Shown: in pieces, positions 49,272-50,054 of the stretch
How the letters are laid out: every line of letters begins with the position of its first letter
Numbering within the stretch: the stretch's first letter is position 1
Assembly (NCBI GenBank): GCA_951406725.2
Contig: OX597830.1
Coordinates: 124,001-188,000, forward strand
Length of the DNA: 64,000 nucleotides
Direction of reading: 5' to 3'
Origin: Octopus vulgaris
Lineage: Eukaryota
Translations under genes and position numbers: made by a program
Notes under the pieces: generated by a model
What the model was told of the DNA's origin: nothing
Seen by the model: only the letters and a program-made list of their open reading frames with translations
Database searches by the model: none

Positions 49272-50054
49272 CAGTAATAATAAAGGGTGAAATTAATTAA
49301 TTTGGAATAATTATCAATTACACCAAGTAGATTTCGGCATGTAAAAGCCCCATTCGAGGAAAATTTAAGTAATACTAAGTAATTAAGGGTTTAGCAACGA
49401 ATTGCCTCACCAACACACCGAATTTAGAAATAGCAGTCAAAGAGATATAGCTATTCCTTCTACTTAAATTTTCCTCGAATGGGGCTTTTACATGCCGAAA
49501 TCTACTTGGTGTAATTGATAATTATTCCAAATTAATTAATTTCACCCTTTATTATTACTGATAACCATATTTTATCCCAGTAAATGACCGCAGCATTTTG
49601 TCTTGGCTACACGCGGGTGGAAGGGGGCTGGTGACACAAACTTTCATTCAAACTTTGAATTTCGTGGTACTGGTCATGCTTTGGCTCGCTCTGACACTGA
49701 GTTGAGATAATGCCTTCTAGTATCTCAAAATTTAATATACAATTATTCATAATTGTAGTATCCTGCGCCGATGAGAAAAGAAGTTTGGGTAAAGTAGAAT
49801 TTTCTAATTCTTATGCTCTCCTAAAACTTGATTTCGAAACGTACGTCCGTAGGTAACTTAAAATTGTATGATGGATTGCCGTCATTTCATTCTTTCTTTC
49901 TTACCTGTCTGTGTTTGCCTTTCAAGTGCTGTGTTTTTACTGAGATCCCCCTTTTAGTAGAAGGAATAGCTATATCTCTTTGACTGCTATTTCTAAATTC
50001 GGTGTGTTGGTGAGGCAATTCGTTGCTAAACCCTTAATTACTTAATATTACTTA
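49272..50054 (+). mobile_element. Retrozyme-like family A, copy 2: one 588-nt unit plus an inverted junction-spanning segment, inserted in (TA)n
   Basis: The reverse complement of 49272-49464 equals 49956-50054 joined to 49467-49560. Confidence 0.85.
49762..49853 (+). ncRNA. Type I hammerhead ribozyme (U4C core variant), long stem II
   Basis: cctgcg-CCGATGA-gaaa..aagttt...aaactt..tttc-GAAAC-gtac-GTC-cgtagg. Confidence 0.82.

Follow-up and report, generated by a model that had tools for sequence, protein, structure and literature searches.

Metazoan non-LTR retrozymes, known from coral, mussel and axolotl, are non-coding units of ~170-400 nt arranged in tandem with one type I hammerhead each, for which the relevant passages of PMC7229834 propose a circRNA template and a Penelope-like element (PLE) as helper; mobilisation by PLEs is described there as proposed, not demonstrated. 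Vertebrate non-LTR retrozymes are treated as non-autonomous PLE derivatives in the sections cited here of Li, Clavereau, Pollet 2026 (bioRxiv 10.64898/2026.07.22.740005), where the link is drawn from pLTR homology and from co-occurrence with Neptune and Poseidon PLEs in 35 genomes, none of a mollusc. The EN+ PLEs themselves (anole Poseidon PAc, PMC11167929; Neptune and Naiad, PMC8557442; rotifer Penelope, PMC3846280) show, in the parts of these papers that deal with insertions, 5′ truncation, partial tandems, an inverted 5′ copy, a tail at one end, targets of the AT or microsatellite kind and a hammerhead in the repeat. Work on the anole PLE in vitro demonstrates that reverse transcription starts at two adjacent internal sites with the tail as the sequence between them, that both target strands are nicked and extended, and that insertion did not need hammerhead cleavage (PMC11167929). 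The formation of tandem and inverted PLE insertions is presented as a proposal in the corresponding passage of PMC8557442, which calls for an in vitro system.

The stretch of DNA that we analysed, called here the window, comprises 64,000 nt of Octopus vulgaris (contig OX597830.1, positions 124,001 to 188,000). It holds an insertion embedded in (TA)n (window 49269-50054), made of two arms joined head to head (Table 1; position 1 of the unit is window 49461). The inverted arm is 97-100% identical to the unit. Judged from its sequence, the element is one copy of a young family of hammerhead repeats with a 588-nt unit and no ORF, sited in (TA)n, which we call family A. By the criteria that can be tested on sequence, family A is an animal non-LTR retrozyme, and we regard this class assignment, together with mobilisation by PLEs, as very probable.

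Table 1. Positions of the features of the family A insertion, and of a family B copy, in the window
Feature	Position	Strand	Remarks
Forward arm	49461..50054	+	One 588-nt unit, then 6 nt of a further lap; meets (TA)n at the proximal fixed end, E1
Inverted arm	49269..49464	-	Unit 496-588 running on through 1-103; meets (TA)n at the distal fixed end, E2
Tail (unit 1-103, ~100 nt between E1 and E2)	49269..49371	-	At one of the insertion's ends only; tail concept from PMC11167929 and the tail passage of PMC8557442
4-nt microhomology at the head-to-head arm junction	49461..49464	.	From sequence
Predicted hairpin directly upstream of E2	49508..49546	+	Retained in both families, A and B; invariant, or changed on one side only
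Predicted type I hammerhead	49762..49853	+	See text
Putative retained 74-nt intron	49853..49926	+	GTRA donor, pyrimidine tract, AAG acceptor
Most conserved block between A and B	49956..50035	+	Two small predicted hairpins upstream of E1; from the comparison of families A and B
Left (TA)n target	49224..49268	.	From sequence
Right (TA)n target	50055..50207	.	From sequence
Family B copy, two-armed	23571-24232 and fragment 24458-24545		Canonical CUGAAGA hammerhead at 24003

As in the metazoan retrozymes, the tandem unit of family A is non-coding and carries one type I hammerhead. It is longer (577-591 nt), has a long stem II region and, in its youngest subfamily, a U4C core, unlike the retrozymes of PMC7229834, and its two fixed ends and two-armed insertions have no counterpart in the passages of that paper used here. 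A circRNA template and a PLE helper, proposed in that work, are likewise proposed for family A. Arrays of two or more successive units that carry hammerheads, the working definition given for vertebrates in the cited part of 10.64898/2026.07.22.740005, occur in family A, whose 588 nt fall within the 51-972 bp range reported there and which likewise co-occurs with Neptune and Poseidon PLEs; its link to PLEs comes from insertion anatomy, no homologous pLTR having been found. With the EN+ PLEs it shares the whole set of features listed above, possibly also a retained intron of ~75 nt, and unlike them it has no ORF. Its tail of ~100 nt, like that of ~118 nt in local Neptune-type elements, exceeds the 30-40 nt given in the published PLE descriptions consulted. 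In Chlamydomonas, MRC1 and further Chlamys PLEs are likewise non-autonomous, multicopy in head-to-tail order and recently active; in the account of PMC8557442 that covers them, they are generally 3′-similar to an autonomous family, mostly lack hammerheads, and belong to another clade and kingdom.

The original prediction placed one hammerhead and no meaningful ORF in the forward arm, and both statements hold, since a type I motif was found and no stop-free frame of a unit dimer exceeds 67 codons. It read the inverted arm (given as 49272-49464) from the end of the unit into its start, which is correct, while the left limit really lies at 49269, where the arm merges with (TA)n. The unit length of 588 nt was also right; the tactta motif said to bound it is not a terminal repeat, its 3′ copy being the start of the next lap and its 5′ copy part of the junction microhomology. 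Arms elsewhere measure from ~30 to 3688 nt, so that the match of the forward arm to the exact unit length is a coincidence. Target-site duplications are unreadable within (TA)n. The junction-spanning inverted arm had been taken as the sign of a circular or multimeric template. A template longer than one unit is indeed supported, and tandem arms reach 6 units. Since the anole tail is the sequence between two starts of reverse transcription, the arm itself is first of all an ordinary PLE tail, and because tandem copies are common in the genome it cannot tell a circle from a multimer.

Genome-wide, an exact 22-mer of the hammerhead has 544 matches and an exact 23-mer near the 3′ end has 1087, against 0 for the reversed control patterns, and the repeat family is therefore not due to chance. 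In the best 40 of 2151 candidate regions we found 148 pieces; most full-length ones are 98-100% identical, and older copies go down to ~80% identity. We analysed 148 distinct insertions (39 youngest, 66 obtained via the hammerhead motif and 60 via the 3′ motif, 17 of the 60 being shared with the other two sets). Every sample is motif-selected, on the hammerhead or near E1; 15 duplicate loci were removed before counting and arms <30 nt were ignored. Of 82 spacings, 81 give a unit of 577-591 nt, and tandem arms run head to tail without an ORF for up to 6.3 units (3688 nt); with frames of at most 67 codons, these are tandem non-coding units like those of animal non-LTR retrozymes. A sister family B, 67% identical to A, has a unit of 591-595 nt, two-armed insertions and the same two ends; it occupies 1563 candidate regions and has a canonical core in 28 of 29 cases. 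Our literature search returned no paper on cephalopod retrozymes, and the family may yet be catalogued in Repbase or Dfam.

The predicted hammerhead consists of stem I (49762-49767 with 49848-49853), a CCGAUGA core (49768-49774) which carries U4C instead of CUGAUGA, a long stem II region of 61 nt (49775-49835), GAAA at 49836-49839 and a short palindromic stem III, with predicted cleavage after 49847 (unit 387). Each unit thus has stems I-III and the core of a type I hammerhead, though Rfam returned no hammerhead match, whether by gathering or by E-value threshold; the 61-nt stem II region is the probable reason. Rfam microRNA matches were rejected as (TA)n artefacts. Differences between families A and B keep the pairing: a C-G pair of stem I is U-A in family B, and the changes in stem II are compensatory. 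The core varies with age, being canonical in 47/47 cores from arms of <93% identity and U4C in 105/106 cores from arms of >=96% identity, so U4C marks the currently expanding subfamily. In a viroid hammerhead, U4C has a lower activity in vitro and is yet sufficient in vivo, according to the relevant part of PMC3088659. Modelled as a circular monomer, the unit is predicted to fold better than 40 shuffles (z -4.8), with stems I and II kept.

A putative 74-nt GT..AG intron has as its first base the last one of stem I; its donor and acceptor are kept in A and B. Counted as insertion alleles, the donor GT is present in 105/105 and the acceptor G in 103/107 in family A; the AAG end is found in 11 of 12 matched copies of family B. 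Penelope has a retained 75-bp intron in its pLTR (as stated in a passage of PMC8557442). The conserved block at 49956-50035 is likely to be part of the region recognised by the reverse transcriptase (RT).

The outer ends of the insertions cluster at two sites. With E1 set at unit 574-9 and E2 at unit 92-115 (windows drawn after inspection of the data), the 230 outer ends of the 148 insertions comprise 128 E1, 87 E2 and 15 others; the two sites, ~100 nt apart, together take 215/230. TA-type repeats adjoin 219/230 outer ends, in agreement with the (TA)n targeting foreseen in the original prediction. Among 82 two-armed insertions, 68 have E1 and E2, 2 have E1 twice, none has E2 twice and 12 have another end, that is, one E1 and one E2 arm in 68 of the 70 that can be classified (P ~2e-18 against independence). 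Since 17 of the 25 TAT/ATA sites of the unit fall outside the two windows (8/25 inside), TA microhomology alone is insufficient to explain the fixed ends. The 5′ ends are scattered along the unit; the free circular permutation of copies that had been expected is not what we see, because only the 5′ ends vary. PLE-type inversions, also predicted, were recovered among the sampled insertions as inverted arms with a tail at one end, both textbook PLE features (see the passages on them in PMC8557442 and PMC3846280). The insertions thus display the PLE anatomy of 5′ truncation, inversion, a one-end tail and a microsatellite target. Joins with microhomology are seen as well. As read from the sequences, the two-ended pattern with one end per arm is a Penelope-like tail signature.

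We searched for a helper. No sense PLE ORF end abuts the 5′ side in the 105 insertions, collected before the last 43, that were tested with 7 query proteins, and the 5′ ends join TA, unique DNA or an inverted arm. Matches to any PLE protein occur in the flanks of 10/105 and are unrelated fragments. None of the 105 therefore looks like an autonomous PLE with an RT and GIY-YIG ORF, and no RT or GIY-YIG ORF is linked to them. This agrees with the expected unlinked copies and, as the unit has no ORF either, with the proposed non-autonomous hammerhead family of retrozyme type. The partner search, with the Neptune RT and two N-terminal queries, covered part of 9309 and ~1800 candidates per query. 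In 120 Neptune-type loci no sequence homologous to the unit was found above short chance matches, and local alignments of the unit to N1, N2 and N7 scored within shuffles. In family E, no ORF was attached in 30 loci.

The genome does contain several intact Neptune-type PLE families with frames of 727-1091 codons (~727, 778, 980 and 1090), the 727-codon family with dozens of near-identical copies. Intact and apparently active families were noted at loci L121-L139, L174, L175, L178 and L221-L226, most of them with long-stem-II hammerheads. Two Neptune-type families have hammerheads with a 57-61-nt stem II region, a palindromic loop III and (TA)n targets; their two ends are separated by ~118 nt, and of 9 two-armed loci 8 have one end in each arm, the remaining one being ambiguous. 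Two other families have the U4C core. Pfam and PDB searches with the Neptune-type proteins returned nothing. We take these proteins to be Neptune-type partly on motifs of this clade. The label also draws on the linker CxxC motif, as given in a passage of PMC8557442, and on Atlas look-alikes with GIY-YIG. Since insertion anatomy is shared while none of the 120 loci holds a sequence homologue, we infer a Neptune-type helper from anatomy rather than from an identified partner.

Units within one insertion are nearly uniform. Laps of one insertion diverge by 0.54% in the young set, where insertions differ from one another by 1.6%; in the hammerhead-selected set the two values are 0.87% and 5.8%. 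Diagnostic sites within insertions are concordant in 3401 cases and discordant in 40, where 1132 discordant ones are expected at random. At doubly covered positions, insertion-private variants occur in one lap only (103), in all covering laps (20) or in some laps (1); 11 of the 20 all-lap variants span both arms, 17 rest on two laps only and one lies in an ambiguous C run. This near-uniformity fits a single-unit, circular monomer template. The predicted cleavage site is read through in 55/63 passages in the 3′-selected sample. A count of 67/90 arms longer than the cleaved monomer was dropped, its sample having been selected on the cleavage site, and the E1-selected sample was used instead.

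Some insertions depart from this uniformity. Haplotypes are mixed at >=2 sites in 6 of 64 insertions with doubly covered sequence. The 6-lap array L363 (G000:C1:50429800-50437500) shows a period-3 variant pattern and L337 a period-2 pattern, both compatible with oligomeric circles or with block duplication. In L260, variants are common to two adjacent laps and absent from the other laps. Mosaic and periodic arrays fit heterogeneous multimers, template switching or later DNA-level duplication, and the last of these could homogenise units without any circle. For the predicted circRNA of ~590 nt, the evidence from sequence points both ways. Four runs, whose RNA label is a guess, were also compared with the unit: contigs cross the tandem junction in two, such contigs being silent on ends, strand and absence. 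No contig joint in the same four runs matches the putative intron, a point on which contigs cannot show absence. A loose-end motif from run contigs has no exact match in the genome, and between 0.32 and 0.56 of the sampled words occur in runs that carry the labels of five other organisms.

A possible further trace of the template lies in the 5′ ends. At unit 388-395 we count 8/98 against 1.3 expected, in 6/60 insertions (P 7e-5, arms treated as independent), and none at 377-387, in the 3′-selected sample. The start lies exactly at 388 in two copies, L318 from this sample and L022 from the young set. The pile-up points to run-off on cleaved linear RNA, but a pause of the RT at stem I may explain it instead, since equally strong peaks at unit 489-496 and 541-548 coincide with predicted hairpins.

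On balance, we favour a hammerhead family without an ORF that is likely copied in trans by a Neptune-type RT/GIY-YIG enzyme, by priming at two sites, on an RNA that is probably often a re-ligated circle. Tandem copies would be transcribed on the + strand, the hammerhead would cut some transcripts after unit 387, and monomers would be ligated into circles. The PLE enzyme would then nick (TA)n on both strands and begin cDNA internally at E1 and E2; both cDNAs would extend towards the 5′ end, either round a circle or along a multimer for several laps or until run-off on cleaved linear RNA, and would finally be linked head to head. The templates would probably also include linear cleaved RNAs and uncleaved multimers. 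Within this scheme, two-site priming is likely, and the chances that circles are a major template are about even. That no circle is needed, a linear tandem transcript (uncleaved or 5′-cleaved) being the PLE template and multimers arising by DNA-level duplication or insertion into existing copies, seems to us rather unlikely. The periodic and mosaic long arrays, the two-lap variants of L260, the pile-up of 5′ ends just past the cleavage site and the U4C core, present in all but 1 of 106 cores in the youngest arms, speak for such a template, as does unprocessed RNA being the main substrate of the anole PLE (PMC11167929). However, private variants shared between laps are usually common to all laps and both arms, and the youngest copies still have 2-4 laps; as 5′ truncation should shorten arrays in every round, some step from monomer to multimer must recur.

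Priming at two sites has its own competitor, in which one arm is RNA-primed and the first cDNA folds back and self-primes, the second fixed end being set by endonuclease cleavage or by annealing. Both 5′ ends lie <=25 nt apart in 18 of 64 two-armed copies (8.7% expected), which would fit an RNA end common to both arms, pauses at the same places or fold-back priming; tiny fold-backs are seen at some junctions (L318), and self-priming has been proposed for rotifer PLEs (in a passage of PMC3846280) and resolution by the endonuclease for the tail (in one of PMC8557442). We find this unlikely, because the 5′ ends are unrelated in 46/64, either arm may be the longer one, the arms differ in haplotype in a few insertions (among them L035), and equal ends also follow from pause sites or an RNA 5′ end that both arms share. 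The layout of hammerhead, possible intron and tail is that of a pLTR, and the partner search, made with Neptune-type queries, extended to part of the candidates, so that the copies might stem from an autonomous PLE, as truncated fragments of its pLTR, with the ORF-bearing copies outside the sample. This is improbable given head-to-tail units without an ORF for up to 6 laps, the 0/105 insertions with a sense PLE ORF end and the nature of the 5′ junctions. Local duplication of laps probably does occur, but a DNA-level minisatellite or Helitron-like repeat with an incidental hammerhead is hardly credible: it is contradicted by the end statistics, by dispersed short insertions with 5′ truncation, fixed 3′ ends and inversions, and by a TA targeting identical to that of autonomous PLEs in the same genome.

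Other elements were noted during the analysis. Locus L188 (G000:C3:175472850-175474850, -) carries a 534-nt tandem hammerhead unit with a tail hairpin resembling that of family A. A short high-copy family represented at L174:985-1240 (1761 candidates) has the E1 motif and the two-ended, two-armed layout, and neither hammerhead nor ORF in 30 loci; it is possibly a minimal non-autonomous PLE. On the - strand of L124, near 1203, a small tandem hammerhead repeat of roughly 430 nt ends in (TA)n. In the window, identical small hammerhead motifs at 57642 (-) and 62454 (+), inverted to each other, flank a Neptune-like GIY-YIG fragment (61666-62184) and are likely inverted pLTRs of one PLE insertion. 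Broken PLE copies with RT and GIY-YIG fragments of several clades lie at 50210-51800, 13534-15283, 32203-33727, 39316-41486 and 52043-52960; the one at 50210 is a separate 5′-truncated insertion downstream of the 49269-50054 element.

The retrozyme class is already known, and what stands out in family A is the unusual clarity of its mechanistic footprints. More speculatively, and with considerable doubt, its insertions may be a natural record of a dimeric PLE RT that primes both nicked strands at two fixed sites of a small circular RNA and goes round this RNA in both arms. The minority that would run off at the ribozyme cut would then be genomic evidence of cleavage in vivo, and U4C, shared with two autonomous Neptune-type families of this genome, would be a weakened ribozyme favoured for leaving more templates intact. 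Family A is small, free of ORFs and very young, with hundreds of insertions and clean statistics. Its RNA would be a compact substrate for which RT start sites are predicted, intact-ORF candidate helpers occur in the same genome and a natural U4/C4 contrast is at hand, so that two-site priming and the choice between circle and multimer are directly testable.
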